A program made the translations under genes and the position numbers. A stretch of DNA of 64,000 nt from NCBI GenBank assembly GCA_041671325.1, contig JBAZBR010000001.1:153771-217770 (forward strand), in the 5' to 3' direction. Origin of the DNA: Patescibacteria group bacterium. GTDB taxonomy: Bacteria; Patescibacteriota; Patescibacteriia; PEXW01. Positions 13,764 to 49,585 of the stretch are shown in pieces. The stretch's first letter is position 1. Every line of letters starts with the position of its first letter. The notes under the pieces are model-generated. The model made no database searches and had not been told where the DNA came from. It saw only the letters and a program-made list of their open reading frames with translations.

Positions 13764-14199
13764 ATAAAAAACGTACATTACAAAATCTGATTACCCTCAT
13801 CCGGCCCCGCGGCCGCGGGGTCGCTCGCAATGACAGATAAAAAGTGTTCCTTACAAAACGAAAAAGCGCCTTGAAGTTATCGCAGCGCTTTAGTAAAGAT
13901 AATTCAATTACAGAGGTTTTCTGGACACTACGGTAAAAAATCCGTCAATGTAAAGAATCTGGAAGAGTTCAAATTTTTTAATACACAGGCCATTAAGGTA
14001 ACCCTTAAGTTCTGTGGGTGTAACCACTTCAACATGGTAATCATAAGCAATAACCACTTTTTTACCCCTTTCCTTTTGTGTTTATACAGGCTAATTTAAT
14101 TAGATATGTTAACAAAAGTATGAATATTTGTCAAGCCATTTATGAAATGAAAGTTTTAATTTCTAAATAACATTAGGAATTAAAATTTCTAGTTCATAA

Positions 14200-15605: not shown

Positions 15606-15743
15606 TTGTCACCCTGAGCCTGAGTATTATGAAGGCGAAGGGTCTCCACAAGTGTAAATAATATTTATAAAGATTCTCCCGCCTGCCTCGCCAGTGCGAG
15701 TACGGTGGGCAGGTCCCCCGCAGTCGCGGGGTCAGAATGACAA
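15606..15743. repeat. Foldback MITE-like element, copy C. It contains the inner palindrome cccgcctgcc...gtacggtgggcagg, which is also inserted in a pseudo-tRNA at 39116-39152.
   Basis: The terminal inverted repeats are TTGTCACCCTGAGCC / GGGGTCAGAATGACAA. It begins 6 nt after the atpD stop. Confidence 0.7.
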
Positions 15744-33340: not shown

Positions 33341-34231
33341 ATGTTAATTGACTGGATTGCGCTTGCTATTTTTGGGCTTTGTATGGTAATCTGCGCGGTT
33401 ATTATTTGGCGCAAGCTTCCAACTTTAGCCAGTATAAAAACCGAAGCAATTCCTAAACATCAGCAAGCTGCCCAAAAGAAGGCGCTCTTAGATAAGAGAT
33501 TACAAGATAAACTAGGCAGTTTTGAAACCGCAGTAATAAAAGTCTTTAAATTAATTTACCTGAATTTACAGAAATTCTTTAGAAATTTACTTAAATATCT
33601 GAAAGTTCGGGAAAGTGAATATCGCCGCAAAGTAATCACTCAAAAGGCAATTGAAAATCCCGATGCCTTAAGGGCAAAAATTGTAACTGCCCTGAATGAG
33701 GCTCAAATAAATTTAAAACAGAATGATCTGGAAAAAGCCGAGCAAATATTTGTTGATGTGATAAGTATGGATGCAAAAAATATAGACGCTTATTTGGGTT
33801 TATCTGATGTGGCAATGTCAAAAAAAGATTATGCAAATGCCAAGGAAGCTTTAAATTTTGTTTTAAAACTGCATCAAGATAATGAAGCGGCTTATAGCCG
33901 GCTTGGCAGGATTGCTTCGGATGAAGGAAACTTCAATGAAGCTGAAGCTGATTATTTAAAATCAATATCCCTGAATGCTTCCATGGCCAATGCGCAATTT
34001 GAATTGGGGAGTGTTGAAGAAAAACTTGGCAATTACGAGAAAGCAGAACAGGCTTTTTCTGAATCAGTAAAATTAGAGCCTGCCAACCCAAAATATTTAG
34101 ATGGATTAATACAGTTTGCCATTAGACAAAAAAATAAAAATTTAGCCAAAGAAACCTTGAAAAAATTAAAAGAAGCTAATCCAGAAAATGAAAAAATTGA
34201 TGAGTTATCAGAAAACATTAAAACAATTTAA
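33341..34231 (+). CDS. TPR-repeat protein with an N-terminal TM anchor
   Basis: It has a TM helix followed by several 34-residue A/Y/L-pattern repeats. Confidence 0.55.
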   Translation: MLIDWIALAIFGLCMVICAVIIWRKLPTLASIKTEAIPKHQQAAQKKALLDKRLQDKLGSFETAVIKVFKLIYLNLQKFFRNLLKYLKVRESEYRRKVITQKAIENPDALRAKIVTALNEAQINLKQNDLEKAEQIFVDVISMDAKNIDAYLGLSDVAMSKKDYANAKEALNFVLKLHQDNEAAYSRLGRIASDEGNFNEAEADYLKSISLNASMANAQFELGSVEEKLGNYEKAEQAFSESVKLEPANPKYLDGLIQFAIRQKNKNLAKETLKKLKEANPENEKIDELSENIKTI

Positions 34232-34257
34232 ATAATTTGTTTTCTCCCGCCACCTCT

Positions 34258-34333
34258 GCCGTTGTAGCTCAGCTGGTAGAGCAACTCCATGGTAAGGAGT
34301 AGGTCGCCGGTTCAATTCCGGCCAACGGCTCCA
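34258..34333 (+). tRNA. tRNA-Thr (anticodon GGT)
   Basis: The cloverleaf was folded by hand, with acceptor stem gccgttg/caacggc and anticodon loop aTGGTaa. A CCA end is encoded. It is enclosed by a 17-bp inverted repeat (34241-34257 / 34333-34349). Confidence 0.85.
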
Positions 34334-34444
34334 GAGGTGGCGGGAGAAATTACGCAACGGTTTTGTCCCGCACATTATAAATTCAATAGTTGTAAACGGG
34401 ATCTTCGAAATTGCATCAAAATTTGCCAGCGTAGCTCAGCTGGT

Positions 34445-34688
34445 ACCCCGCACAACTCACTACGTTCGTTTGCGGGGCAGGGAGCAACGGTTTTGTCTCC
34501 CTTCGGGAGATGTCCCGTAGGGACATAAACCTTGAAAAATAATTAGTTTTAAACCCGAGCCGCCCTAGCTCAGTGGTAGAGCAACTGTTTTGTAAACAGT
34601 AGGTCGTCAGTTCGACTCTGACGGGCGGCTCCAAACCCGGCGGGCAGAAACCGTAGGTCGTCCCGCGGCCGCGGGACCGCTGGCTCCA
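34445..34688 (+). pseudogene. degenerate tRNA-Thr(TGT)-like gene with hairpin insertions in the D-loop, anticodon loop and T-loop. The intact tRNA-Thr(TGT) is nested inside its anticodon-loop insertion.
   Basis: The 5' half gccagcgtagctcagctggta...gagcaacggttttgt and the 3' half aaaccgtaggtcgtc[ccgcggccgcgggac]cgctggctcca pair as acceptor and anticodon stems. Confidence 0.55.
34559..34633 (+). tRNA. tRNA-Thr (anticodon TGT)
   Basis: The cloverleaf was folded by hand, with anticodon loop ttTGTaa. A CCA end is encoded. Confidence 0.85.
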
Positions 34689-34830
34689 CGCGTCATCGCT
34701 TGTTCCACCCTTCGTGTACTCGAATTGTCGAGTCCACTGCGGGTTCCACAAGCGTGCCGCTTTCCCCAAATTTTTCTTTGAAAAATTTGGGGCTCCAATT
34801 CATTAATTTCAATAATTCAATTATTATCCT

Positions 34831-34986
34831 ATGTCACAAGAAAATCTTATCAAGTTAGAATGTACGGTTTGCAAGCACGTGAATTATCATTCAAAAAAGA
34901 ACAAAAAAACTTTGAAAAAACGTTTGGAATTGAAGAAACACTGTTCATGGTGCGAAAAGCATACTTTACACAAGGAAACTAAATAA
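34831..34986 (+). CDS. rpmG: 50S ribosomal protein L33 (zinc-ribbon form, 51 aa). It is not in the ORF track because it is under 60 aa.
   Basis: The ORF was read directly as [51 protein letters not shown], with CxxC...CxxC and a KKRLELKK segment. Confidence 0.7.
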
Positions 34987-34992
34987 TTGGAT

Positions 34993-35083
34993 GGGGGAAT
35001 AGTTCAGCGGTAGAACAGCGGTCTCCCCGCCTTCCACGCCCGACGTACCAGACGCACTCTGGCGGGGACGGGTCGGAGTACGG
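34993..35083 (+). pseudogene. degenerate tRNA 5' fragment (tRNA-Trp-like) with a GC-rich hairpin insertion after the anticodon
   Basis: gggggaatagttcagcggtagaacagcggtctcc parallels the intact tRNA-Trp 5' half. It is followed by the insert ccgcc...ggcgg and has no T-arm or acceptor 3' strand. Confidence 0.5.
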
Positions 35084-35108
35084 AAATTATATTATATTGC
35101 TAGTTGAT

Positions 35109-35182
35109 GGGGGCGTAGTTCAACAGTAGAACTTCGGTCTCCAAAACCGGTAACGAGGGTGCGACACCTTCCGCCCCCGCCA
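35109..35182 (+). tRNA. tRNA-Trp (anticodon CCA)
   Basis: The cloverleaf was folded by hand, with anticodon loop ctCCAaa. A CCA end is encoded. The T-loop tgcgaca is non-canonical. Confidence 0.75.
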
Positions 35183-35238
35183 ACTAGCGGTATACATGAT
35201 ATTATTCCTATTTTTTCTATATTTTTTAACAAAAATTA

Positions 35239-36609
35239 ATGCAACTTACAATATTATTTTTCATACTGTATATTGCCGTTGTAGTAATAATCGGTGTAAT
35301 ATCTTCACGAAAAGAGACTGAAGACGGTTTTATGATCGCAGAAAGGAAGGTGTCTGGTATCCAGGTTGCTGCCACAATGAGCGCTGGTTTTTTTGACGGT
35401 GCAACACTCGCGGTATATCTTGCGTATATTTACCTATACGGAATGTCGGCGGCATGGCTCTTTGTTGGTTTAGCCATTGGCTTTATTCTTTTGCGCCGTC
35501 GATATGCGCTGATAATAAAGAAAAGGGCGGATGAAATGCATGTGTACTCTATGCCTGAATATTTTTATAAAATTTTTGGGAAAAGAACTGGTTTAATGTT
35601 CACATTTTTACTAGTTCTGCAGTATTTTCTTCTGCTAATAGTAAACTTCATAATCGCTGGCAAAGTATTGTCATTAATTTTCCCTGTATCTTATTTCATT
35701 TCGGTAATGATCGGAGGTGCTGTAATCCTTACTTATCTTTTACTCGCCGGTTTTAAAGCCGTTATTAAAACAGACTTTTTTCAGTTAATAATAATGTTTA
35801 TAATGAGTTTAACAGTAGCAATATTCTTGTTTGGTAAAACCAATATACCAATTTCTGATTTTAGACCTTTTACTTTAGGAGTTGGCAATTTAGTAGGATT
35901 TTTACTGTTAGGATGTGTAGGAATAATGGTCGCACCCGACCTTTGGCAACGTATTTTCGCTACCAAAGATGAAATTAACCTCAAACGAGGATTGGGTTAT
36001 TCCGCAATCATCTTGCCATTACTTGCTATCATTATTAGTATTGTTGGTCTTGCAACTAAACAATTCTTTCCAAATATTGTCCCTGAAAATGCACTTATTA
36101 CAGGGTTCTCTGAGTTATTACCCTTTGGGCTTAAGGAGTTTGGCATTGTCCTGTTATATGCCGTCGCCCTTTCGTCGTCGGACACTATCACTTTCTTAGT
36201 ATCATCAATCTTTACCAGAGATTTGAAAAATTACACTAAACGGTTTGGCGAAGAATCAATGAAAAAACTTACTCGATTTTTCATGATAGTATTCGTATTA
36301 GTTGCCGTTCTTATTGCTATATTCTATCAAAACATTGTTGCCCTCGGTCTATCATTGGGCAGTTTAAGTTTGGCCTTATTCCCTGTCATTCTCGGCACCT
36401 TTTATTGGAAGCTAAACGAACGTGCGGTTTATTGGAGCTTGTTGATAGCTTTTCTGAGCGTTGTCGCAGTATTTTTAGCTGATGCTGTGAATCCGCAAAA
36501 TGTGGCAATTTCTCTACCTGTTGCGGTCATTAGTCTGTTTATCCTTAACAAAATTTTTAAGAAAAAAGAAAGAATAACCTCTGCGCCTAAAGTTACAATG
36601 ACTTTGTAG
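35239..36609 (+). CDS. sodium:solute symporter (SSS) family transporter
   Basis: It is a roughly 13-TM protein of 456 aa with an SSS-like N-terminal region. It lies between tRNA-Trp and a 29-nt repeat of the tRNA 3' part. Confidence 0.5.
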   Translation: MQLTILFFILYIAVVVIIGVISSRKETEDGFMIAERKVSGIQVAATMSAGFFDGATLAVYLAYIYLYGMSAAWLFVGLAIGFILLRRRYALIIKKRADEMHVYSMPEYFYKIFGKRTGLMFTFLLVLQYFLLLIVNFIIAGKVLSLIFPVSYFISVMIGGAVILTYLLLAGFKAVIKTDFFQLIIMFIMSLTVAIFLFGKTNIPISDFRPFTLGVGNLVGFLLLGCVGIMVAPDLWQRIFATKDEINLKRGLGYSAIILPLLAIIISIVGLATKQFFPNIVPENALITGFSELLPFGLKEFGIVLLYAVALSSSDTITFLVSSIFTRDLKNYTKRFGEESMKKLTRFFMIVFVLVAVLIAIFYQNIVALGLSLGSLSLALFPVILGTFYWKLNERAVYWSLLIAFLSVVAVFLADAVNPQNVAISLPVAVISLFILNKIFKKKERITSAPKVTMTL

Positions 36610-36661
36610 AAAACGTGGGCATTATCCAATATCACGGTACTATATCTGCCAAGCGGGCATG

Positions 36662-36690
36662 CAAAACCGGTAACGAGGGTGCGACACCTT
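36662..36690 (+). repeat. 29-nt perfect direct repeat of the tRNA-Trp 3' part (caaaaccggtaacgagggtgcgacacctt), equal to 35142-35170. It looks like an att-site scar.
   Basis: The exact match was read directly. Confidence 0.8.
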
Positions 36691-36721
36691 TTGCTCCTGT
36701 TGCATAACTATATCGAAATTT

Positions 36722-37318
36722 ATGTTACCAAAAATAATTCTTTTTGATGTCGGCAATGTGGTTATCGATGCCGATCAAGCAATTACTCATAAACTTCTTC
36801 AAAGTTTGGGTGTTCCAAAGGAACAGTCCGAATTATTTTATAAGAATAAGGAATACTTTGAGTTTAGCCGCGGTAATATTTGCGGGCAGGATTTTTATAA
36901 ATCCTTAATTAATGAGTATTTAAAAATTCCGCTCTCTTACGAGCAGGTGGTAAACGCCCACAACCAACATATTTATGGAGTTAATGAAAACGTTATTCAA
37001 ACCATTAAGGGCTTATCAAAGTACACAATTTTATTTGCGACAGATACCAACGAGTGGCAAACCGCCAGAGAGAAGGAGTTAATAAACTTGAAATTATATA
37101 GCCAACATATTTTTAGATCTCACGAATTACATAAGTTAAAAGTGGATGATGGATTCTTTGAGGGTATTCTTGAATTTCTTAACATTAATTCAGCCGAGGT
37201 TCTTTTTATCGATGATGATCCGCAAAAGTTAAATATGGCGATAAGACAGGGTTTGGAAGGGTTAATTTTTGAAAATAATCTTCAATTGAAACAATCTTTA
37301 AGCAATTTGGGTATTTAA
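36722..37318 (+). CDS. HAD-superfamily hydrolase
   Basis: It has motif I ILFDVGNVVID, motif II ILFATDTN and motif IV LFIDDD. Confidence 0.55.
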   Translation: MLPKIILFDVGNVVIDADQAITHKLLQSLGVPKEQSELFYKNKEYFEFSRGNICGQDFYKSLINEYLKIPLSYEQVVNAHNQHIYGVNENVIQTIKGLSKYTILFATDTNEWQTAREKELINLKLYSQHIFRSHELHKLKVDDGFFEGILEFLNINSAEVLFIDDDPQKLNMAIRQGLEGLIFENNLQLKQSLSNLGI

Positions 37319-37448
37319 GGCTTATTTAGAAATGAATTTAAAATAACCTGTTTGTCAATTAATACCGCCAAGAAAGCGGTTTTTTTGTTAGTGTTGACGG
37401 AATTTCATTATTGTGTGAAAATAAAAAAGCTACAATGCTTACCTTAAG

Positions 37449-37859
37449 ATGCGAAATCAACATCAAAAACAATTCCTAAAGCGGGTTTTAACCTCAAGAG
37501 GTATAATTGTTTTTGAGGTTTTAATTATAGCTTTTTTACTTATTGGCATTTCTAAGGAAATTATCAGGCGAGTTTCATTAAGGCAGGAAATAACGACCCT
37601 AGAAAAGCAAATTACCGAACTTGAATCGCAAAACCGAAGCTTGGGAGAATATGTAGCCTCGATAAATACCGAAAGTTTTAAAGAAAAAGAGGCGCGGAAG
37701 CGCTTAAACCTTCAAAAACCCGGAGAATCTTTACTAATCTTGCCGGAAACCAAGAGTTTATCAAATGAAACACCAGAAAATTCAATTTCAAACTCCATTG
37801 GAAAAGGAAAGTCGAACCCGCTTCGATGGTGGCGATATTTCTTTACTTCTTCAACTTAA
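37449..37859 (+). CDS. FtsB/DivIC-like septum formation initiator (TM plus coiled coil)
   Basis: It has an N-terminal TM helix and a leucine-zipper coiled coil LRQEITTLEKQITELESQNRSL. Confidence 0.55.
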   Translation: MRNQHQKQFLKRVLTSRGIIVFEVLIIAFLLIGISKEIIRRVSLRQEITTLEKQITELESQNRSLGEYVASINTESFKEKEARKRLNLQKPGESLLILPETKSLSNETPENSISNSIGKGKSNPLRWWRYFFTSST

Positions 37860-37866
37860 TTAATTT

Positions 37867-38955
37867 ATGACCGAAATTCATCCTGATCATGAGGCGGTTC
37901 GAGCAGAGATTGCGGAAGCAAAATTACCCGATCCAGAGCATCATGATTTAAAAAAATTACCTCCTCCGCACATCCATTGGCTTAGAAGGATAGCTATCTG
38001 GCTGGGCGGCTTGGTTGTTTTATTAATCCTGGTTTTTGCCGTAGGCTATTTGCGGTTCAGCTGGCAGAACAAAATATTATTATGGCCAGCCAAAGTTTTG
38101 CCCTATCCAGTCTCAATTGTGGGAGGTGAATGGCTTTCATATTATGATTATCAAGCTGATGTGCCAAATATAACCCAATACGTTGAAAGAAATTCCCCAC
38201 CAGATGCCGAGGTTACCAGAAATATGTCTTTAGACGTTTATTCCCGCAAGATAATCTTGAATAAGATGATTGGCGAGGAAATTATCAATAAAATTGGTCT
38301 AGCCAAAAAATTAACCGTCACCCAGGCTGATATTGATAAAACTTATCAAAATTACGTCACCCAGGCTGGCAGTACTGAAGCAGAAATTTCTGATACTATT
38401 AAAACTTTGTACAACTGGTCGGTGGATGAATTCAAACAAAAATTAATCAGTTCTCAGGTTATCCAGGAAAAATTGGCTGAATCATATTTTGCTGAAGTAA
38501 AAAATCAAGTTGAACAGCTCCGAACGGAAATCCTGAAAGACCCCAAAACTTTTGGTGAAGTTGCAAAAACACAAAGCGATGATACCTCAGCTGCCAAAGG
38601 TGGATTAATTGAGCCTATGAATACTGCTGCCCTTAAGACAGCCTATAGCGATTCGGCCGCGCAGATTGAAAGCCTGAAGGTTGGCGAAATCTCAAACGTT
38701 CTGGAAACCAGCCGAGGTTATGAAATTGTGTATTTGGAAAAGAAGGAAGCGGCAAAAAAAACGGCTGATGGTAATATGTTTACTTTGAGGGTAATTTCCA
38801 AAATGCCGGATTATAATACCTGGATCCAGGATTTAGTTAATGCAGAAATAAAGAAAAGCCGAATTATTGTTTTTGAACCAAGATTCAGATGGGAAGCGGA
38901 CTGCGGTATCTTAACTAAAGCGGAGCCAAGCTGCAAAACTACGGCTAGTAATTAA
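37867..38955 (+). CDS. membrane-anchored PpiC/parvulin-type peptidyl-prolyl isomerase (PrsA/SurA-like foldase)
   Basis: It has a TM anchor and a C-terminal parvulin domain (GGLIEP...GEISNVLETSRGYEIVYL). Confidence 0.55.
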   Translation: MTEIHPDHEAVRAEIAEAKLPDPEHHDLKKLPPPHIHWLRRIAIWLGGLVVLLILVFAVGYLRFSWQNKILLWPAKVLPYPVSIVGGEWLSYYDYQADVPNITQYVERNSPPDAEVTRNMSLDVYSRKIILNKMIGEEIINKIGLAKKLTVTQADIDKTYQNYVTQAGSTEAEISDTIKTLYNWSVDEFKQKLISSQVIQEKLAESYFAEVKNQVEQLRTEILKDPKTFGEVAKTQSDDTSAAKGGLIEPMNTAALKTAYSDSAAQIESLKVGEISNVLETSRGYEIVYLEKKEAAKKTADGNMFTLRVISKMPDYNTWIQDLVNAEIKKSRIIVFEPRFRWEADCGILTKAEPSCKTTASN

Positions 38956-39070
38956 ATTAAGTTTGGATCCCCGCGCGGCGGAACTGGCGCGTGGGGAAGG
39001 CGAGGCTTCGTGCGGAGTCTGGAGTGAGCAAGCGTTAGCGTGCTTACGGAAGGCGAAGCACGAAACGAGC

Positions 39071-39270
39071 TGGAGCCAGCGGTCCCGCGGCCGCGGGACG
39101 ACCTCTGCTTTACCTGCCCACCGTACTTCGCTTGGCGAAGGCAGGCGGGCGAAAGCATTGCTCTTCCGGGGAGTTCGGATCCCGTAAGCGGGATAGCCTC
39201 ACTCCCGTCTTGGCTCTCGCAAACTCAAGCAGTTGAGTTTGCTCGTCGCCTCGACCCAACTGAGCTAGAT
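39071..39270 (-). pseudogene. degenerate tRNA-Thr(CGT)-like copy immediately downstream (minus strand) of the intact gene. It has a 95-nt D-loop insertion, a 37-nt anticodon-loop insertion and the same palindromic T-arm and tail as the 34445-34688 pseudo-tRNA.
   Basis: The minus-strand read is ctagctcagttgg[ins]gagcaatgctttcg[cccgcctgccttcgccaagcgaagtacggtgggcagg]taaagcagaggtcgtcccgcggccgcgggaccgctggctcca. The 34-nt tail is identical to 34655-34688. Confidence 0.55.
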
Positions 39271-39346
39271 TGGAGCCACCCGTCGGAGTCGAACCGACGA
39301 CCTCTGCTTTACGAAAGCATTGCTCTACCAACTGAGCTAGGGTGGC
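39271..39346 (-). tRNA. tRNA-Thr (anticodon CGT)
   Basis: The cloverleaf was folded by hand on the minus strand, with anticodon loop ttCGTaa. A CCA end is encoded. Confidence 0.8.
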
Positions 39347-39361
39347 ATAAGATATGACGCG

Positions 39362-39435
39362 TGGAGCGGGTAACGGGAATCGGACCCGTATCTCATCCTT
39401 GGGAAGGATATGTACTACCACTGTACTATACCCGC
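39362..39435 (-). tRNA. tRNA-Gly (anticodon CCC)
   Basis: The cloverleaf was folded by hand on the minus strand, with acceptor gcgggta/tacccgc and anticodon loop ttCCCaa. Confidence 0.75.
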
Positions 39436-39456
39436 CTGCAATCAGGATTTTAAACA

Positions 39457-41442
39457 ATGTATGGATATATGACAAGCTTAAAAAAACTTTCATTCGCCAT
39501 TTGCGCCTTTTTAGTGATTTTTTTGCCAATCAAAGTTTTTGCGGCTGAACCAACGATAATTGACGTTGAAAGCGATTTCGCAGTCCGCGGCAGGGAATAT
39601 AAAATTGGAGAAGAATTCACTTTAGGTTTAAGACCCGACCTTTTTTCCTCTCCAGCCAGGATTACCATCACCCCGGAAGCTACTTTACCATTAGCCCTGC
39701 CTCCTAGGTATGAAGAGGCTGGCAAGCGTTATGAGTTAGTAATTGACGCGGCAGATGAAGGTGTGATGGCGGCAGATGCCATGTGGTTAAAAGTTTTAAG
39801 CGCTCCAAAAGCTGGGACAGAAACAGTTTTATTAGGCTTTAATTTTTCCAAACAAATTTGGGAATTTTTGGGACGTGGTGCGGACGCTCAGAATTTTATT
39901 AAAGGATCAACAAAACAACTGCATACTGTAATTGTAGCGGCAGCAGATTTATTTACCGTTCCAGGGAATTTTGGCAGTGATTTAATTGTTAATTCAAAAA
40001 CACAAGTTATAGATTTATCATCCCAATCAGTATTAAATTTTAAATTTGAAAATCTGCAATTTACTTTACCGAGTTCAACTATCAGCCAGAATGCGAGTTT
40101 AATAGTAATTCCAAATGTCGTTAGTCCTTTAATTTTACCGAGTCGATTTAAGGCCCGAACTTCATATTATCAGATAGCTCTACGTCAGCCCGGTGGGATA
40201 AAAATCCGGCCAACCGCTCCAATTACAATTTCGCCGACTTTAGCCAAGAACGGTTTTTTTGAACAAAAAGTTTTAATTTATAATGCCACCCATAAAACCT
40301 GGGAAACAGCCATTAAAAACCGTGTACCCAATCCAGAATCAATTTTTTTAATTGTTGATGATTTGGGCGAAGAGCAGGGGATAGCCAGTTGGTATTCAAG
40401 CAAAAAGTATCCTGATGGCGTAGCTCATAATCGTTATCCCATGGGTACTAAGCTAAAAGTCACAAATATCGAAAATAACAAATCAACCATCGTTAAAGTC
40501 GTCTCACGGGGACCGTACATTCGCGGTCGGGTTATTGATATGGTTTATACGGCATTTAAAAAGATAAAAGGCAAAAATGGCGGGGTAGCCACGGTCAAGG
40601 TTGCGGTTGTCGATTTGAAAGTTTTAGGCGAAACCATTGCAAAAACTGAAACACAATTAAATCCGGTTCCCACAGATGTCAATTCCAAGGAGCCTATTAA
40701 GCTTCCAATTTCGAGTACTGCTGGTGCAGTTTATGATGTTGATAATAAGGTCTTTGTGGCAATAAAAAATTCAGATGAAGCCCATCCAATCGCCAGCCTG
40801 TCCAAATTAATGACAGCTTTAGTTTATCTTGATCGCAAACCAACCTTTAGGAATAAAGTCACTTATCAAAAATCAGATTCAGCAATATGCGCTTGTCTGT
40901 ATGTGTCACCAGGCGAAACTTTAACAACCAAAGATTTGTGGAATGCCATGCTGATCGGTTCGGCAAATAACGCAGTTAAAGCGTTAGTCAGGTCAACGAA
41001 ATTATCAGAAGCAGAGTTTGTAAAACTAATGAACGAGAAGGCAAAGGCCTTGGGCCTTAACACCCTAACTTTTGCCGATCCAACCGGCTTAGATCCAGCA
41101 AACCAGGGCTCAGCTGCGGATATGGCAAAACTTGCCGCCATTGCTTTTTCTCGCCCAGAAATTGCCAATACGACCATTAAAAAAAGCTATACTTTTTCAA
41201 CCCTTAATACCAAAAGAAGCCATACCATAACCAACCGTAACCAGATTTTAACCAGTGGCTGGCAAGTAACCGGGACAAAAACTGGATATATAGAAGAATC
41301 AGGTTTTTGCTTAATCGGCCAGGTAAAAGGCAAGACCACAAACCGGAATTTAGTCGTGGTCACTTTGGGGGCCCAATCAAAAGCCCTGCATTATACTGAA
41401 ATGGAAAATTCATTTAGCATTGGTTTTGCAAATATTCAATGA
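39457..41442 (+). CDS. secreted cell-wall enzyme with an RlpA-like double-psi beta-barrel domain and a D-alanyl-D-alanine carboxypeptidase (S11, PBP5-like) domain
   Basis: It has a signal peptide, a DPBB-like region WYSSKKYPDGVAHNRYPMGTKLKVTN, an SxxK motif IASLSKLMTA and a serine-carboxypeptidase region. Confidence 0.65.
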   Translation: MYGYMTSLKKLSFAICAFLVIFLPIKVFAAEPTIIDVESDFAVRGREYKIGEEFTLGLRPDLFSSPARITITPEATLPLALPPRYEEAGKRYELVIDAADEGVMAADAMWLKVLSAPKAGTETVLLGFNFSKQIWEFLGRGADAQNFIKGSTKQLHTVIVAAADLFTVPGNFGSDLIVNSKTQVIDLSSQSVLNFKFENLQFTLPSSTISQNASLIVIPNVVSPLILPSRFKARTSYYQIALRQPGGIKIRPTAPITISPTLAKNGFFEQKVLIYNATHKTWETAIKNRVPNPESIFLIVDDLGEEQGIASWYSSKKYPDGVAHNRYPMGTKLKVTNIENNKSTIVKVVSRGPYIRGRVIDMVYTAFKKIKGKNGGVATVKVAVVDLKVLGETIAKTETQLNPVPTDVNSKEPIKLPISSTAGAVYDVDNKVFVAIKNSDEAHPIASLSKLMTALVYLDRKPTFRNKVTYQKSDSAICACLYVSPGETLTTKDLWNAMLIGSANNAVKALVRSTKLSEAEFVKLMNEKAKALGLNTLTFADPTGLDPANQGSAADMAKLAAIAFSRPEIANTTIKKSYTFSTLNTKRSHTITNRNQILTSGWQVTGTKTGYIEESGFCLIGQVKGKTTNRNLVVVTLGAQSKALHYTEMENSFSIGFANIQ

Positions 41443-42119
41443 TTACTTTTGAAAAGGTTTCCAAAATTTACCCTCATAATGTCATTGCCCTAAAAGACAT
41501 AAACCTTACCATTGAACCCGGCGAGTTAGTTTCTATTGTTGGCCAATCCGGCACGGGCAAGACCACTTTAGCAAAAATGATCATTGCCGAAGAGCATGCT
41601 TCAGAAGGCCGGGTAATTATCGGTGATTGGGATATTACGAATATAAACACTAAGGACGTACCGCTTTTACGCCGGCAGATTGGTGTGGTGTTCCAGGATT
41701 TTAAGCTTTTGCCCCAGAAGACCTTATTTGAAAATGTAGCTTTTGCCTTGGAGGTATCCGGGGCTTCCCATAGCAAAATTCAGCAAATCGTTCCGCAAGT
41801 TTTAAAAATAGTCGGTCTGCAACAAAAGCAAGACCGTTTTCCAAGGGAGGTTTCTGGTGGCGAGCAGCAGCGCGTGGTTATTGCCCGAGCCTTGGTCCAT
41901 CGCCCAAAAATTTTAGTTGCGGATGAACCAACCGGCAATCTTGACGCGATTAATGCCCATGAGATTGTTGAATTACTGCTCAAAATCAATAGTTTTGGAA
42001 CAACCGTTGTTTTGGTAACCCACAATCGGGAAATCGTAAACGGCCTTCGAAAAAGAGTTATAACCCTTGATCACGGCCACTTGGTCTCAGATCAAGCTAC
42101 AGGGAAATATCGATTATGA
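41439..42119 (+). CDS. ftsE: cell-division ABC transporter ATP-binding protein FtsE
   Basis: It has a Walker A motif GQSGTGKTT, an ABC signature LSGGEQQR and a Walker B motif. It is followed by ftsX. Confidence 0.85.
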   Translation: MITFEKVSKIYPHNVIALKDINLTIEPGELVSIVGQSGTGKTTLAKMIIAEEHASEGRVIIGDWDITNINTKDVPLLRRQIGVVFQDFKLLPQKTLFENVAFALEVSGASHSKIQQIVPQVLKIVGLQQKQDRFPREVSGGEQQRVVIARALVHRPKILVADEPTGNLDAINAHEIVELLLKINSFGTTVVLVTHNREIVNGLRKRVITLDHGHLVSDQATGKYRL

Positions 42120-43042
42120 TAGCCTTACAAACCAGTCGTGCCATCAAATTTGCCATTCAGAATTTCCGCAGGAACCTTTGGCTTTCCATTGTAACCATAA
42201 TTATCGTCGCGGTTGCGGTTTTTTCAATAAGTTTAGTATCGGCTTTAAATGTTTTGGGCGGGCGGGCTTTGCAGACCGTTGAAAAGAAAGTTGATGTCAC
42301 CTTGGAATTAAAAACTGATGTCACTGAAGATCAAGCGCTTGCTTTTAAGGGAAGATTGGAAGCCCTACCCAACATCCAAAGTATTGTGTATCAAAGCAAA
42401 ACCCAAGCTTTTGAGAATTTCAAGCAAATCCATAAAGACGATCCAAACATTCAAGCTTTATTGGCTGAACTTACGGAAAACCCCTTGCCTGCAAACATAA
42501 TCATTAAGGCAAAAAAAATCACCGACTTTGAGCAAATCATGAAGTTTGTGGACATTGATGAAAATATTAAATTAATTGCGGATAAAGACAGGGATTTTCA
42601 GGATAGCCAGACTGTCATAACAAAATTGACCCAAATTACCGATCGCATCAGGGAAATCGGGATTTTAGTTAGCGGGGTATTTGCCCTGCTGTCTTTAATT
42701 GTTTTATTCAATACTATCCGAATTGCCATTTACACCCATCGGGAAGAGATTGGGATAATGAGATTGGTTGGCGCTTCGAATGGTTTTATCCGTTCACCGT
42801 TTATAATTGAAAGCATTATTTATAGCATCATTGGCGCAGGCATTGCTTTGGCAGTAATTATCGTTCTTTGGCAAAGCGCGGCGCCGGCGGTATACAGGTT
42901 TTTCTTTGTTGGAACAGACGTGAGTGTCAGCAATATTTTAAAACAGGAATTTTGGGCAATTCTTGGCTGGGAGTTTATTGGCGCAATAATCTTGAGCACT
43001 TTAAGCGCTTGGATTGCCGCTCGGAGGTACTTGAAAGTCTGA
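42116..43042 (+). CDS. ftsX: cell-division permease FtsX
   Basis: It has 4 TM helices with a large first periplasmic loop, overlaps ftsE, and has the typical FtsX length. Confidence 0.8.
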   Translation: MIALQTSRAIKFAIQNFRRNLWLSIVTIIIVAVAVFSISLVSALNVLGGRALQTVEKKVDVTLELKTDVTEDQALAFKGRLEALPNIQSIVYQSKTQAFENFKQIHKDDPNIQALLAELTENPLPANIIIKAKKITDFEQIMKFVDIDENIKLIADKDRDFQDSQTVITKLTQITDRIREIGILVSGVFALLSLIVLFNTIRIAIYTHREEIGIMRLVGASNGFIRSPFIIESIIYSIIGAGIALAVIIVLWQSAAPAVYRFFFVGTDVSVSNILKQEFWAILGWEFIGAIILSTLSAWIAARRYLKV

Positions 43043-43069
43043 GAAAATTAATTTAATCTAGTGAATCAT

Positions 43070-43161
43070 TCCGGGATCGTCTTCCGCCAGAGGCGGATTA
43101 AGAAAATGGTAGGACAGCGGCCTTTTCCGCCCTAGGCGGACTCGCCTCCGGCGAGGAAGCC
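43070..43161 (+). pseudogene. degenerate tRNA-Gln 5' half with a hairpin insertion in the D-loop and two hairpins after the anticodon position. It lies upstream of a GIY-YIG gene.
   Basis: tccgggatcgtc[ttccgccagaggcggattaagaaaa]tggtaggacagcggcctttt[ccgccctaggcgg actcgcctccggcgagg]aagcc parallels intact tRNA-Gln positions 1-38. Confidence 0.55.
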
Positions 43162-43173
43162 AAGATATAATTT

Positions 43174-43371
43174 ATGTATTACGTTTACGTATTACTAAGT
43201 CATAAAGATAGAACAAGATATATTGGTTATTCTTCAAAAGAACCACATATTCGTCTCGCTGAACATAATAGTAGCAAAGGAATGTTTACACGTGGTCATC
43301 AACCCTGGATACTGACTTATTATGAAGAATTTGAACAGATAAAGACTGCTCGTGAGCGTGAGTTATTCTAA
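43174..43371 (+). CDS. GIY-YIG nuclease family protein (65 aa)
   Basis: It has an YVYVLLS...RTRYIGYS GIY-YIG core. Confidence 0.65.
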   Translation: MYYVYVLLSHKDRTRYIGYSSKEPHIRLAEHNSSKGMFTRGHQPWILTYYEEFEQIKTARERELF

Positions 43372-43425
43372 AAAAAGCGGCCAGGGCAGGAAATGGCTTG
43401 ACGACAAGTTTAAAAAATAATTTAT

Positions 43426-43499
43426 TCCGGGATCGTCTAATGGTAGGACAGCGGCCTTTGAAGCCGTTTATCTTGGTTCGAATCCAGGTCCCGGAGCCA
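43426..43499 (+). tRNA. tRNA-Gln (anticodon TTG)
   Basis: The cloverleaf was folded by hand, with acceptor tccggga/tcccgga, anticodon loop ctTTGaa and T-loop ttcgaat. Confidence 0.8.
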
Positions 43500-45080
43500 A
43501 TGTGCACGAAGCGACCGCTCTGGGTCGTTTTGTGCTGTAGTTGCAAAGGATTTCTTTGGTTCTAACATAGTCATTACTCGCTCTGCATTCTGATCAAGAT
43601 TTTTCACCGCAAACAGGAGAATGTCCAATGAAAGGTGGAGCTTTCCGTCCTTTAAAGAAAAGTTCGAACCTAGCGTTGTAAAAATCTCTTTTTTCACCTC
43701 AAGGCTTCCCGTAGCGAATACGCGCCGTGCTTTCTCTGCAAAGTTGATGCCCCGCTCGGCAATCCCCAGCCAATTTTCAATCCGCTTGTCCGTATCTTTC
43801 AAGAATTCCTGCATACGGTCTTTCTCTTTTAGTAAGGCAACCTTCCTGCCTCGAAACTCCACCTCATCAATCTCACTGTTTGCCCGCATGTCAATGAGGT
43901 TATCAAGCTTCTTCACGCACGATTCGTACTCTCGACGTTGGTTGCCGTAAACACGTTCCCGGTCCACTACTTCAAGCTTGTGCATTTCCCGGAGCCTCGC
44001 AATAGCCCAGTCTCGAAAATCCTCTTTGATTTCTAATTTACCAAGTTCAGTGGCAATCTGCTTTTCCACTTCACCTTCCTCAAGGGACTTTTGGGTGCAG
44101 TTCGGGTACTTCCGCTTCGTGCAGTGGTAGTAAATGTAGTGTTGGACGGTTCCATCAGCGAGGCGTTTCGTTTTCTCTTCAGCCGTGACCATTGCACCGC
44201 ACTCGCCACAGCGGATTGGGCCACGGTAAGGAAAGTCATGCGTCTTTGAGCGCTGGGGTGACGGGCGGCCAAGGAGTTCCTGAATGCGTTCAAACTCCTC
44301 TCGGTTAATCATTGCTTTGTGAATACCTTTATGCCAGTTGCCGCTACCCTTGGGATACTCGAACTCCCCATAGTAGAACGTATTTGTGAAAATGTTGTAG
44401 ATGGAGCTTCGACAAATTGGGGTGCCATAAGTGCCCCTAAGTTTCCACTCATCAGCCGCAATTTGCTGGATGCGTGGCGGAGAGTAGTTACCCGTAAGCA
44501 TGAGATCAAACATCTTTCGCACCAGGCCAAAGCGCTCCGGGTCGGGTGTAATAGTTTTCATGCCTTTGGTCATGTACATTTCGTTTTTATAACCCAGGGG
44601 TGCGGGAGCGGGCAGTACTCCCATTTGTGCTTTTTGAACCAAACCACGCTTCACATCCCTGCCTTTCTTGGCGCTCTCATACTGCGACTGCGAAAGCGCC
44701 AGTTGTAGCATCCAGATACCTTCAGGCGAGTTATTCTCAAAGTGGTAGGTGGCCAGCTTGAGGTCTTTGATGATGCCCTCACGTAACATGTAGGTAATAC
44801 TACTCGCGTCAACTTCATTGCGAGAAAGACGATCTGGATGCCACGCGAGTAAGCCCTGGCGTTCGCCCTTCCGAATACGTTCCAACATCTTGGTAAAAGC
44901 AGGGCGATTATACGGGTGAAAGGCACTGGCCTTGTCCTCAACGAATTCAATATCGAGGTCAGCAAAGACCTCAGTGAGCTTATTCTTTTGCGCAGGGATA
45001 GATAACGCCTGTCGCTCTTTTCCTTCAGAGGACTTACGTACGTAAGCGAAGTATTTAGTTGTTTTGCCGTGTGGATCCAT
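43437..45080 (-). CDS. large serine recombinase (resolvase N-terminal domain, recombinase domain and zinc ribbon). Its 3' end overlaps tRNA-Gln.
   Basis: It has an N-terminal YVRKSS...RQ.LSI catalytic Ser region, a YYHCTKRK...NCTQ zinc-ribbon region and a length of about 547 aa. It is a paralog of 58183..59859. Confidence 0.8.
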   Translation of the reverse strand: MDPHGKTTKYFAYVRKSSEGKERQALSIPAQKNKLTEVFADLDIEFVEDKASAFHPYNRPAFTKMLERIRKGERQGLLAWHPDRLSRNEVDASSITYMLREGIIKDLKLATYHFENNSPEGIWMLQLALSQSQYESAKKGRDVKRGLVQKAQMGVLPAPAPLGYKNEMYMTKGMKTITPDPERFGLVRKMFDLMLTGNYSPPRIQQIAADEWKLRGTYGTPICRSSIYNIFTNTFYYGEFEYPKGSGNWHKGIHKAMINREEFERIQELLGRPSPQRSKTHDFPYRGPIRCGECGAMVTAEEKTKRLADGTVQHYIYYHCTKRKYPNCTQKSLEEGEVEKQIATELGKLEIKEDFRDWAIARLREMHKLEVVDRERVYGNQRREYESCVKKLDNLIDMRANSEIDEVEFRGRKVALLKEKDRMQEFLKDTDKRIENWLGIAERGINFAEKARRVFATGSLEVKKEIFTTLGSNFSLKDGKLHLSLDILLFAVKNLDQNAERVMTMLEPKKSFATTAQNDPERSLRAHWLRDLDSNQDKRLQRPLSYH

Positions 45081-45121
45081 AAACCTTTTAATAGGATAGC
45101 TTAGTTGCGTTATAGCACTTT

Positions 45122-45751
45122 TTATATTTCAAGGTTAGTATAGCTTCTAGACGCCTGTTCGTAGAGCCTATACAGACGTTGTTGTTTTTTTGTGGGCTTT
45201 CCGGCGTAGTATGGGTTTTTTATTTTCTCCTGAAGTTCATACATTTTCTTGTGCATCATAAGAGTATTGAAGAGCGAAAAGTATTTACTACGTCGGTTTT
45301 CATTTCTGGAACTGTAGGTGAGATTGTAACAATGCCGGCAGGCGAAAAAAGTGCCAATTTGGTAGAGAACCCCCACCCGTCGACCGCAGTAATGACCATT
45401 GGAGAAGAATGGGCAACGAAACCAATATCGTTTACCCCCGTATCGGCATACCGTGGTAGTAAGAGGTACCCGACAGTCAAAAGCCTTCTCATCGCCATTG
45501 GGGTCGGTCTGTGCATAGGTTAAAAGTATATAAGCATTTTCACCAAGTGCCGAGACAGCGAGGTGGGTACTACTTTCCTCACCAGTGTAACCGTTGGTCC
45601 AGGTCATGGTCGCTGTTCTCCCGCTGGAAAGAAGGCCATTATGTTTGAGCACGTTAATAGATAGCTTCTTTAACCGATCTGCCTCGATTTTGCGTAAAAT
45701 CGTTATCCTATAATTACCGAAATCATTTGAGATTGGGGTCGGTTGCGGCAT
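45122..45751 (-). CDS. hypothetical Cys-rich (zinc-ribbon-like) protein
   Basis: It is an ORF with CRYGGKRYWFRCP...CRHC and lies between the recombinase and the primase. Confidence 0.45.
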   Translation of the reverse strand: MPQPTPISNDFGNYRITILRKIEADRLKKLSINVLKHNGLLSSGRTATMTWTNGYTGEESSTHLAVSALGENAYILLTYAQTDPNGDEKAFDCRVPLTTTVCRYGGKRYWFRCPFFSNGHYCGRRVGVLYQIGTFFACRHCYNLTYSSRNENRRSKYFSLFNTLMMHKKMYELQEKIKNPYYAGKPTKKQQRLYRLYEQASRSYTNLEI

Positions 45752-47940
45752 TAAAGTAATTTTTCAGTTACATTTACCCCACCCTTCGTCTCACTATTAT
45801 TGCCAGGAGGATTAGCCGTCAAATCGTTGGCGTCTTTACTACCATCAGAATTTTGAAAGTGGGAGGATGGGAAAATCAAGATTTTCCGTTTATCATCGGG
45901 ATCTTGCTCCTGGATGATAAGCCCGGCCGTCTCCAACATTGGCAGTATTTGCTGACGGAGCTGATGCGTGTCCAGCATCCGTCCGTAGACGGCGAAGTGT
46001 TTACTTAGCACCTCTTGGCGGGTAACTCCGACTGTACCTACGACTTTCTCTATTCCGTCTTGCCCTACATTTTTTTCCTCCCAAGCAGGAAAAATTATGT
46101 CTTTATAGAGGTCGTAAATGTAGGGTGGCAAATTGAGTTCCTGGCTTACAGAGATTTTATCCCAGAGCATGAAGGCCGCATCAATATCTTCATTATTAGC
46201 CATGATGGTTGAGTCTGTCTGTTCCCGCCACCAGATATTAAGGAGGGCAAACGCTTTAATAAGGGAGAGAAGTCGTTTGATGTCCCGTTGGTGACGCGGT
46301 TTGAGGAACTGATGATCGCCAAGGAAGCGTTTCTCTATCCTCTCCGGTGATACGATATTTATTTCCTTTGCATTCTCCAGCTTGATGGCACGGATGCGTT
46401 CTTTGAGCAAGATGCGTCCTGGATCCGCCTCTAGCCAGCTCGTGAAGCTTTCGCTGTTTGCTTCTTTGCGAATAACGGCGCTAATACCCTCGTGAATTTT
46501 TTCCTGATTAACCTCTGGCGAGAGTAGAAGAAAGCGGGTTGCTTCTTGCTCATCTATACGGAGTCCCGCGGTACAAAAGATGACTGACGGAAAACCTTTA
46601 ATAATTACAGTCTTGGTTCGGTTGCCACCTTTTTCATTTTTGTCGGTTATTTTGGATTGCATCTCTTTTTCGTCATGGGACAAAAGAGATCGTAATCGCT
46701 CTAGAAGATCGGCATGAGGTTGATCTAGAAAAATGATTATTTTCCTCGATAAATCCACTACGATTGTATTCGTATCCTTGTCAAACTCACCTTGCTCGTG
46801 AAAAAAAGCGTTGGGTGAGCAGTTGCCCAATTTCATAACATCTTGATTTGGAAACAAATTGGAGATTTCCAGTGGGATGTAGCTTTTCCCCGTTGAGGAT
46901 GGTGCGTTGTAACTGATGTTGAATTGGGCGTTTTCGGTGTATGCAGACAATTCACATAAGAACGTGGCGAGCTTGTTTTCTGCGTCGTGTTTAATGGTCA
47001 ACCCAAGCGTTGCAAGGAGCTGATTGACTGTGAGCGGCGTGAACTTGCTAGTATCAATCCGTTCGGGATACGGTTTCGCGTACTTGGAGAATAGGTCCTC
47101 AACCGTGCCATTCAGCTTAGTGAAGTAATCAGTTACATCCCCCCCATCGCCGACCTCCGGCGGAAGGGTGATGATGAATGTTTCTACTTTTCCGCCATCT
47201 TCAACCATTTTTGCGGTTCGCTCTGCGCCCTTTCGACCAGCATTATCGTTGTCGAAGCATACATAAACCTCCTTGAGGTTTTGGATACGTTCTGCCCATT
47301 CTTTATTGAACGTCATTGCCCCATGAGTCGAAGTAACAGCTAAAACACCTTTGGAGATGAGTAAGAGTCTGTCTAGTTCTCCCTCACACACCACCAGAGG
47401 GCTATCTGAAGTTTCTAGAGCTCCCCAGTCATACAGTTGGGCTTCCACCCCACTGGGGTAGGTCATTTTGTCATTCCCAAATGCTGGATCCTGTCGGAGC
47501 TTAAAAAAGACGTAATTCCCGTAGGTATCCTTGATGGGTATGGTAATCCACTGCTTACGGTAGAATTGCCCGTAGCCGAGCTTGTAGGCGTCAATTACAG
47601 CGTCTGTAAGCCCCCGCTCGTGTAGGTATTCACGAATATGAATTGGGAGTGCCTGGTGGTACTTCTCAACCTTGTCTGTAACAGAGTTGATCGTCCGGCG
47701 AGGGCGTGACTCCTCGTCGCCCAGATGTTTGCGGAGGGTTTGGAGATTACCTTGTGCGCCACACTTCTTGCAGTCGTACTGCCCGGTTTCGGTATTGAAG
47801 TACAAGTGCGCCTCTCCGTTCCTGCTATCCTTGTCGCACTCGTTTAATAGGCATTTCGTGATGAGTTCGTTGCCACTCTCGCGGAATGCGATACCCTTCT
47901 GGGCTAGGTACTCGCGGATGGTAATTGTCTGTAGGGTCAT
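45751..47940 (-). CDS. phage/plasmid-type DNA primase-helicase (zinc finger, Toprim and P-loop region)
   Basis: It has an N-terminal CxxC...CxxC zinc finger, a Toprim-like EGELDRLLL...TSTHG region and a Walker-A-like PSSTGKSY motif. It is 729 aa. Confidence 0.6.
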   Translation of the reverse strand: MTLQTITIREYLAQKGIAFRESGNELITKCLLNECDKDSRNGEAHLYFNTETGQYDCKKCGAQGNLQTLRKHLGDEESRPRRTINSVTDKVEKYHQALPIHIREYLHERGLTDAVIDAYKLGYGQFYRKQWITIPIKDTYGNYVFFKLRQDPAFGNDKMTYPSGVEAQLYDWGALETSDSPLVVCEGELDRLLLISKGVLAVTSTHGAMTFNKEWAERIQNLKEVYVCFDNDNAGRKGAERTAKMVEDGGKVETFIITLPPEVGDGGDVTDYFTKLNGTVEDLFSKYAKPYPERIDTSKFTPLTVNQLLATLGLTIKHDAENKLATFLCELSAYTENAQFNISYNAPSSTGKSYIPLEISNLFPNQDVMKLGNCSPNAFFHEQGEFDKDTNTIVVDLSRKIIIFLDQPHADLLERLRSLLSHDEKEMQSKITDKNEKGGNRTKTVIIKGFPSVIFCTAGLRIDEQEATRFLLLSPEVNQEKIHEGISAVIRKEANSESFTSWLEADPGRILLKERIRAIKLENAKEINIVSPERIEKRFLGDHQFLKPRHQRDIKRLLSLIKAFALLNIWWREQTDSTIMANNEDIDAAFMLWDKISVSQELNLPPYIYDLYKDIIFPAWEEKNVGQDGIEKVVGTVGVTRQEVLSKHFAVYGRMLDTHQLRQQILPMLETAGLIIQEQDPDDKRKILIFPSSHFQNSDGSKDANDLTANPPGNNSETKGGVNVTEKLL

Positions 47941-49337: not shown

Positions 49338-49585
49338 TGTCCTGCTTTTCAGTATGATTTTATCAGCTTCAAGACTTTTTTCAAGAGCAAATGCGTTAGC
49401 AGAATAGACAATTTTCGAGCCTAAACCTCACTTCGTGAGGCATGGTACCAAACCCCTTAGTAGATACTGAACCCCGTGTTCAGCGACTCTACTAAGGGTC
49501 ACATTCCGAAAGGGATGTGGGTGGCCGAAAGGTCGCTAGCTGGCGCGGGGTTTTGTGTTTTTACTCTCTTATCAAATCATAAACT

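Follow-up and report, generated by a model that had tools for sequence, protein, structure and literature searches.

Fragments of tRNA genes are usually read as footprints of integrase islands and are used to set the borders of such islands. In tRNA-gene islands (Reiter 1989; Williams 2002; Islander, PMC4383910; fragments, PMC9897764) a live tRNA gene is accompanied by extra DNA and by a direct repeat of its 3' part starting from the anticodon loop, and the extra gene is absent in relatives. Another association with tRNA genes has been described for phage T4, where SegB is a free-standing GIY-YIG homing endonuclease and the linked tRNA region is preferentially inherited via intron-free break-and-copy repair (PMC2330249). 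Moreover, the split and multi-intron tRNA genes of Archaea have been reviewed (PMC4090602). In this study we analyzed a tRNA-Trp locus in a stretch of 64,000 nucleotides (nt) from a Patescibacteria group bacterium (GenBank assembly GCA_041671325.1, contig JBAZBR010000001.1, positions 153,771 to 217,770 of the forward strand), hereafter called the window. The locus shares with the islands all features named above, its extra genes encoding a transporter of the sodium:solute symporter family (SSS) and a HAD-family hydrolase (HAD). With moderate confidence we interpret it as a nested scar of tRNA-Trp gene replacement in which the SSS and HAD genes lodged later and whose inner relic was homogenised by the live gene. 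If so, the usual rule would misplace borders here, because the fragments are nested halves of replaced tRNA genes and are older than the gene between them.

The 29-nt sequence CAAAACCGGTAACGAGGGTGCGACACCTT is found at 35142-35170 and again, in direct orientation, at 36662-36690. The window holds these two copies and no third, even at three mismatches, and none of 100 dinucleotide-preserving shuffles gave such a match. The first copy corresponds to positions 34/35-62 of tRNA-Trp(CCA), from the anticodon (position 35/36) through the T arm. Similarity around the repeat reaches 36 nt at 92% (35142-35177 versus 36662-36697); over the 12 nt following the 29-mer the tRNA reads CCGCCCCCGCCA and the second copy TTGCTCCTGTTG, with seven differences, all of them transitions. 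The live tRNA-Trp(CCA) gene (35109-35182, + strand; ARAGORN; Rfam 57.1 bits) has non-canonical loops, namely a D loop AACAGTA without GG and a T loop TGCGACA instead of the usual TTCGAAT type, and is referred to here as new-type. The spacer between this gene and the second copy is occupied by the SSS gene (35239-36609, +, 456 aa), the sole sizeable open reading frame (ORF) between the copies, where Pfam hits were limited to SSF. The initial annotation had described an exact repeat, an intact tRNA-Trp, a transporter as the only gene in between and no surviving integrase, and we could confirm each of these observations as well as its view that the repeat is a displaced tRNA 3' part and that the locus has taken up extra DNA. 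The intervals 34659-39100 and 34659-38657 are each base-for-base identical to one Logan contig, from two samples and independent assemblies. Therefore, the Trp locus with its repeat is not an assembly artefact.

A repeat running from the anticodon loop to the 3' end is typical of classical tRNA-gene integration sites (PMC4383910), and the initial annotation had accordingly taken the two copies for attL and attR of a decayed element carrying the transporter. In detail, an integrase-borne element with the SSS gene would have entered tRNA-Trp on the anticodon-loop side, the live tRNA would represent attL and 36662-36702 attR, and the integrase and most of the cargo would have been deleted later. 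A metagenome scan for the unusual T arm of the live tRNA-Trp matched six contigs. Three of the retrieved loci (L091, L092 and L096) belong to one organism and share their gene order with the window between the Thr/rpmG region and tRNA-Gln, with nucleotide identities of 87% for rpmG and about 71% for DivIC/PpiC and the following 4 kb. L091 lacks both SSS and HAD, and its region from tRNA-Trp to DivIC measures about 210 nt versus 2211 nt in the window. The empty site expected for an integrated element was found only as far as these two genes are concerned, since the 3' fragment is still present there and L094 even keeps two. In L091, 61 nt 3' of tRNA-Trp, GGCGGGCAGG is followed directly by CAAAACCGTTAACGAGGGTTCGATTCCCTCAACCACTGTCA, a 3' half of tRNA-Trp with a canonical T loop. 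This fragment shares its left flank with the window (GCGGGCA-G before CAAAACCG versus CTG....GCGGGCA.G), and its right flank is alignable. Besides, GTATACAT directly 3' of the tRNA is common to L091 and the window, and the window sequence on both sides of the SSS gene matches the short L091 spacer. Since the 3' fragment is positionally orthologous and older than the split between the window and L091, the repeat is not an attR left by the arrival of the transporter. According to these alignments the SSS gene lies inside an old spacer, and the HAD gene lies 3' of the fragment, ahead of a second, decayed fragment and a conserved terminator.

Further observations bear on the decayed island. The SSS gene is missing from this site in L091, L093, L094 and L095, tRNA-Gln in the window borders on a large serine recombinase element, as does tRNA-Ser in L099, and an SSS homolog in L005 has its own 33-nt perfect direct repeat, all of which would fit an integrated element. 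However, a single relic stands ahead of the HAD gene where a fresh integration would add a second one, no integrase or compositional anomaly was detected, and the SSS loci have no common sequence beyond the ORF. The island would also leave the 5' relics and their nesting unexplained, it would require an SSS gene as old as the relic together with losses in L091 and L094, and gene conversion would still be needed for the 29-nt identity. Scans of viral contigs with the 29-mer and with a CCCGCC palindrome gave zero matches and hence no indication of a phage attP. We consequently regard the decayed island as rather doubtful. A scan of a genome collection with EF-Ts yielded relatives at no more than 53% identity and hence no close relative for an empty-site comparison, and exact look-ups of the L33 and SSS sequences matched the same organism only.

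The relics of the relatives are arranged in layers around the live gene. In L091, rpmG and the live tRNA are separated by two 5' tRNA-Trp-like relics, and two 3' relics follow downstream. The order in L094 is distal 5' relic, proximal 5' relic, live tRNA, proximal 3' relic and distal 3' relic; in the proximal pair the acceptor strands GGGGGTT and AACCCCC are complementary at 7/7 positions, and in the distal pair the anticodon-stem strands are complementary. The Trp relics of both loci have canonical D and T loops, unlike the live tRNA-Trp. As the relics are canonical and nested around a non-canonical live gene, older genes have been replaced by a gene of another type lying inside them. The initial annotation had spoken of a classic integration footprint, which does not agree with this order, as classical integration gives no 5' fragments whereas 5' and 3' fragments here nest around the live tRNA. 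The alignments show that an older tRNA-Trp gene with canonical loops was interrupted in the anticodon loop after position 35. The interrupting DNA comprises a complete tRNA-Trp of a different sequence type together with an AT-rich leader, and its ends are GC-rich; upstream of this insert the 5' half of the old gene has remained, and downstream its 3' half. Such an interruption occurred at least twice in the clade, giving rise to nested layers.

Within the window, the tRNA-Thr(TGT) locus is decisive for the nesting, as judged from its sequence. An outer tRNA-Thr(TGT) is present in four segments (34425-34445, 34482-34496, 34648-34662 and 34675-34688; together spanning 34425-34688, +), which are exact substrings (positions 1-21, 22-36, 37-51 and 63-76) of the intact tRNA-Thr(TGT) of L091, all 65 of the 65 retained nucleotides being identical. 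The D loop contains a 36-nt hairpin, the T loop is replaced by ccgcggccgcgg, and a 151-nt insert after position 36 holds a different, live tRNA-Thr(TGT) (34559-34633). The acceptor and anticodon stems of the outer gene pair with each other (7/7 and 5/5) and not with the inner gene. That the D, anticodon and T loops were all hit in the absence of any point substitution suggests that the process was fast or concerted.

At the Trp locus of the window the layers are less complete. The conserved left border is rpmG (34831-34986, +), encoding ribosomal protein L33 (Pfam Ribosomal_L33, E = 7e-18; aligned to L091 915-1088 at the 87% given above). It is followed by a 5' relic of the older tRNA-Trp, GGGGGAATAGTTCAGCGGTAGAACAGCGGTCTCC (34993-35026, +; positions 1-35, outer layer; BLAST 85% to tRNA-Trp positions 8-34), which has a canonical D loop AGCGGTA and terminates within the anticodon (after CTCC). 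The start of this relic can be aligned to the distal 5' relic that directly follows rpmG in L091, and counterparts exist in L094 and L095. Direct reading and the alignment to L091 1070-1246 place a GC-rich insert end (CCGCC...GGCGGGG) and a remnant of the inner-layer 5' relic (about 35064-35083, GGGGAC..AGTACGG) at 35027-35083 (+). The initial annotation had described 34993-35083 as a diverged 5' tRNA copy with a GC hairpin inserted after the anticodon; the copy and the GC-rich sequence were borne out, and the predicted fold of the GC-rich stretch was no better than that of shuffled sequence (z = +1.2). Then follow the AT-rich leader of the live tRNA-Trp (35084-35108, +; direct reading) and, behind the tRNA and the SSS gene, the GC-rich right insert end GCGGGCATG (36653-36661, +), which by motif comparison belongs to the GGCGGGCAGG family preceding 3' relics. 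This motif recurs in L091, where it directly precedes CAAAACCG, in L094 and at 34639 and 39113 of the window. The inner 3' relic (36662-36702, +; positions 36-76) is identical to the live gene over the 29 nt, carries the seven transitions in its tail, and is the positional ortholog of L091 1381-1423 with both flanks alignable. Between it and a probable, decayed outer 3' relic, AAAATAACCTGTTTGTCAATT (37340-37361, +; weak alignment to the second L091 relic, CAAAACCGTCAATGAGAGTCAATT, about 1461-1484), lies the HAD gene (36722-37318, +; Pfam HAD_2). The right border is a terminator-like hairpin 5' of the DivIC gene (37364-37387, +; terminator scan), which is conserved in the alignment with L091. 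These alignments indicate that 34993-35026 probably belongs to the outer layer, that the inner 5' relic is nearly deleted (35064-35083) and that 36662-36702 would be the inner 3' relic. An assignment of 34993-35026 and 36662-36702 as two halves of one gene with compensatory acceptor changes was withdrawn, since the pairing is ambiguous and the L091 alignment places them in different layers.

The identity of the repeat itself can be accounted for by comparing orthologous relics. The relic in L091 and the proximal relic in L094 are of the old, canonical type, whereas the relic in the window has the new-type T arm up to a sharp boundary, which supports a conversion in the lineage of the window. 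We infer that the live tRNA, located 1.5 kb upstream, probably converted the old inner 3' relic and that the perfect 29 nt stem from this event and not from an integration crossover.

Similar arrangements were found at other tRNA loci. All four tRNA clusters at 34.2-43.5 kb have extra tRNA pieces, and the proposal of the initial annotation that the Thr and Gln loci follow the same pattern held for Thr(TGT), Thr(CGT) and Gln. A pseudo-tRNA-Thr(CGT) directly after the live gene (39071-39268, - strand; repeat families D13, D14 and I3) has GC-rich inserts, of 93 nt in the D loop and of 37 nt after anticodon position 35, and the same palindrome in place of the T loop as the outer Thr(TGT). It is a chimera, because over its 3'-terminal 34 nt it does not differ from the outer Thr(TGT) relic. 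The Gln locus (43070-43499, +) consists of a 5' relic with TCCGCC-NNN-GGCGGA hairpins (43070-43160), a GIY-YIG ORF (43174-43371) and the live tRNA-Gln (43426-43499). This arrangement is kept in L091 (7420-7877), where the GIY-YIG ORF is intact; it is shortened by a stop in the window. Breakpoints fall at anticodon positions 34-37 in the Trp, Thr(CGT), Thr(TGT), Gln and Asp relics, and GC-rich motifs are common to the insert ends, with CCGCC(T/C)GCC at the left end and the GGCGGGCAGG motif at the right one. Other Patescibacteria show this nesting at Trp, Tyr, Thr, Ser and Asp loci. Among 92 fetched loci that were screened, 12 showed partial tRNA copies beside live tRNAs; ten of these 12 come from named Patescibacteria lineages (Moranbacteria, Nomurabacteria, Parcubacteria) or from the search for relatives, and the other two (L059 and L069) are labelled 'bacterium'. 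Exact identity of relic and live gene is common at such loci; in L073 it reaches 60 nt for Tyr and 36 nt for Trp. Perfect GC hairpins are also frequent in the window as a whole (14 observed versus about 3 expected).

The Thr relics of the window form a larger structure in addition. The segments 34648-34688 and 39071-39111 constitute a 41-nt inverted repeat, 93% complementary, which encloses the 4.4-kb rpmG-PpiC segment; independent Logan contigs end at both repeat copies (34659 and 39100), and the repeat could mediate inversion. We also observed that tRNA-Thr(GGT) is exactly flanked by a perfect 18-nt GC-rich inverted repeat (34241-34258 and 34332-34349), by which the acceptor stem is extended and the tRNA becomes the loop of a long hairpin. 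A 17-mer resembling Thr(GGT) at 40205 lies inside a long ORF and was dismissed as probably due to chance.

Next to the Gln locus, a large serine recombinase ORF (547 aa) reaches with its 3' end antisense over tRNA-Gln and is followed by a primase-like gene. This region (43437-47940, -) has a GC content of about 0.47-0.49 and is probably an integrated element. A search for a tRNA-Gln 3' fragment at its far end found only 10-mers. The same overlap of recombinase and tRNA was seen at tRNA-Ser in L099. A LOOT RNA (Rfam RF03000, 84 bits) is located at 49418-49537, in or near this putative element.

The conservation of some relics raises the question whether they serve a purpose. It is conceivable that the tRNA-like fragments and GC hairpins are selected functional parts of the tRNA-Trp transcription unit, such as structures for leader and trailer processing, insulators or terminators, or operator-like decoys. 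The relics keep their place across genomes whose coding DNA is about 71% identical, and the segments that were retained often match the live tRNA at 100%. At the Gln locus the 5' relic and its hairpin are far better conserved than the GIY-YIG ORF: the hairpin and a TATAAT-like stretch before the ORF are identical at 31/31 positions between the window and L091, while the two GIY-YIG proteins look about half identical by eye. Hairpins of one form (TCCGCC-NNN-GGCGGA; CCCGCCTCTCGCGAG-GCGGG) recur across genomes and tRNAs. Furthermore, the leader sequence GCTAGTTG (35099-35106) of the live tRNA-Trp is complementary to the trailer sequence CAACTAGC (35181-35188), and such complementarity exists in L091 and L094 with other sequences. 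Nevertheless, neither of the two relic flanks folds more stably than shuffled sequences, and in this region Rfam returned tRNAs only, at the gathering threshold as well as in a permissive search of 34200-43600, which gave six. Relic content varies strongly among relatives, which have old or new T arms, missing stems or truncations, and L093 has the same tRNA-Trp without any relics. Function alone would not account for the nesting either, and we consider this explanation unlikely.

Alternatively, the outer halves might be an expressed split or intron-containing tRNA of archaeal or group I type, in which case the inner tRNA and the SSS gene would be intronic. The inserts in the D, anticodon and T loops do resemble multi-intron archaeal tRNAs, and the insert ends are complementary GC-rich stretches. 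However, the genome is bacterial: the window has a GC content of about 42%, contains EF-Ts, L33, DivIC and PpiC genes, and its tRNA CCA ends are encoded. The T loops have been exchanged and not interrupted, acceptor strands are absent, there is always a live paralog and no complete cloverleaf can be assembled from the exons. The permissive Rfam search did not detect a group I intron catalytic core, and a 1.6-kb intron with a protein gene on the same strand is implausible, so that an expressed split tRNA is very improbable.

With regard to the force behind the replacements, small GIY-YIG ORFs deserve attention. Six of the eight that we found are located directly 5' of a co-oriented live tRNA, each after a decorated pseudo-copy; five of these six end 5-9 nt from the tRNA and the truncated copy in the window ends 55 nt upstream. 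At the Trp and Tyr loci of L073 and L022, a decorated pseudo-tRNA is followed by a GIY-YIG ORF of 82-87 aa and, 5-8 nt further on, by the live tRNA. Further ORFs of this kind stand beside Thr in L067 and beside Gln in L091 and the window (43174-43371; Pfam E = 1.5e-11). The two remaining ORFs, also single-domain, lie between pheS and pheT of two other Patescibacteria (L071 7666-7953 and L078 7506-7766). Free-standing selfish nuclease genes often sit between genes such as pheS and pheT. A search for papers joining GIY-YIG, the candidate phyla radiation (CPR, which includes the Patescibacteria) and tRNA found none in the library that was covered. Given the position of the GIY-YIG ORFs just 5' of live tRNAs, a cassette moving by a homing-like break-and-copy process is the best candidate for the driver.

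The nested replacement could then have proceeded as follows. The inserts would be selfish, self-contained tRNA cassettes, most likely driven by the small GIY-YIG nuclease that is encoded just upstream of the live tRNA in intact versions. The nuclease would break the resident tRNA gene, and repair would copy the cassette in. At the Trp locus of this genome the GIY-YIG gene would since have been lost, and the SSS and HAD genes may have come later by recombination at a repeat-rich, transcription-ready site. Going one step further, we tentatively put forward, as a possibility that we do not yet expect to hold, that Patescibacteria contain an undescribed class of selfish tRNA cassettes composed of a tRNA gene, GC-hairpin ends, an own leader and often a single-domain GIY-YIG gene, which enter the anticodon loop of the cognate tRNA gene and kill and replace the resident. 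Repeated rounds would build the nested relics, and GC palindromes of one conserved family would come to cap the relic loops. The unusual tRNA-Trp with its non-canonical D and T loops might be an allele that spread in this way or one that escapes cutting, and the scars might act as hot spots that capture ordinary genes such as HAD and SSS, which would be shuffled between tRNA loci.

Several points weigh against the nested replacement and the driver proposed for it. The sharp boundary at 36690/36691 could be a recombination junction instead of the end of a conversion tract, and the pairing of the window's own 5' and 3' Trp relics is ambiguous; the refined alignment assigns them to different layers. 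All Trp relatives were fetched by a pattern that requires the new-type T arm, which biases the sample; the identity of this T arm in L091 and L093-L095 has to be read accordingly. The choice between a gain of SSS and HAD in the window and their loss in L091 is based on few relatives. GC-rich hairpins also occur in non-tRNA spacers of the atp operon (13730-13820 and 15677-15731) and may therefore represent a repeat family of their own; the 37-nt element at 15677-15713 almost matches the one inserted into the anticodon loop of the pseudo-tRNA-Thr(CGT). With respect to the nuclease, all seven intact GIY-YIG ORFs tested have 80-95 aa and consist of the catalytic domain alone with no DNA-binding domain, while characterised homing enzymes carry one. 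Moreover, neither the window nor L091 has a GIY-YIG gene at Trp, and the driver is thus extrapolated from other loci.

The transporter gene does not stand out from its surroundings. The SSS protein scores 73.3 bits against Pfam SSF (cutoff 22.8; E = 2e-20) and remained far under the cutoffs of the NCBIfam equivalogs. The initial annotation had suggested composition and codon usage as a check on foreign origin, and the values (GC 0.368, GC content at third codon positions 0.339, codon-usage distance 0.145) are within the range of neighbouring genes. SSS and HAD both show no anomaly of composition or codon usage, which is a weak test if the donor genome was similar. SSS homologs at 75-82% identity occur in many Patescibacteria. 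In seven of seven close homologs that were looked up the gene adjoins neither tRNA-Trp nor a tRNA relic, and the contexts all differ; tRNAs in these seven loci are limited to one tRNA-Asp and one tRNA-Ser at about 3 kb from the SSS gene. A comparison of the seven loci for conserved cassette ends revealed nothing shared outside the ORF. The 33-nt perfect direct repeat flanking the homolog in L005 (3938-3970 and 5403-5435) is the 3' end of the upstream helicase-nuclease gene.

The HAD gene has been found at tRNA loci elsewhere. Homologs at 78% identity are placed directly behind tRNA-Ser in L100 (6760-7000) and L101, with a hairpin-decorated 5' relic upstream. Likewise, 78% homologs lie amid tRNA-Asp relics in L102-L104 (L102 1030-2250), where a duplication of about 125 nt flanks the gene and the T arm of the pseudo-tRNA is replaced by TCCCGCCTCTCGCGAGAAGCGGGA, a palindrome that the Trp pseudo-tRNA of L073 has in almost the same form. 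A homolog at 51% is placed in an ordinary operon. As HAD homologs stand behind several tRNAs and composition is ordinary, relic-rich tRNA loci seem to capture and exchange single genes, by a route that is probably recombinational.

If our observations are general, essential tRNA genes of bacteria with tiny genomes would be subject to turnover driven by selfish cassettes, and single metabolic or transport genes would move between genomes without the machinery of classical mobile elements. The idea of a cassette with a nuclease would be of wider interest if confirmed. For annotation it should be kept in mind that these genomes contain many decorated pseudo-tRNAs which are skipped by tRNA finders.

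The architecture of the Trp locus is a variation of the known theme of tRNA genes as insertion targets. In contrast to tRNA-gene islands, the locus is without an integrase, its fragment persists in a cargo-free relative and its 5' fragments are nested. In addition, the live tRNA-Trp is a complete gene of another type inside the old one and not a host 5' part joined to a 3' part supplied by an element. The CIMEs (cis-mobilizable elements) of streptococci are integrase-less, att-flanked elements which are derived from integrative conjugative elements and use one fixed att site. They resemble our locus in having a small cargo between direct repeats at the end of a conserved gene and no recombinase of their own; they differ in that HAD occurs behind three different tRNAs here and that there are no conserved ends to SSS. 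Randau and Soll reportedly proposed the integration of mobile elements as the cause of tRNA gene fragmentation in Archaea. Archaeal split tRNAs share with the relics described here the breaks in the anticodon loop, the inserts in the D, anticodon and T loops and GC-rich complementary sequence at the break, whereas our loci belong to a bacterium, the broken copies cannot form a full cloverleaf, a live replacement lies inside and there is no sign of splicing. By analogy, SegB of phage T4 would be the nearest characterised counterpart of the proposed cassette, since here, too, a GIY-YIG nuclease gene lies among or next to tRNA genes (PMC2330249). However, SegB includes a DNA-binding part, and no tRNA gene is split by it into nested halves, whereas the ORFs of Patescibacteria, known from sequence and absent at Trp in the window, comprise the catalytic domain only and are located 5-9 nt 5' of a chromosomal tRNA gene, after hairpin-decorated pseudo-tRNAs.

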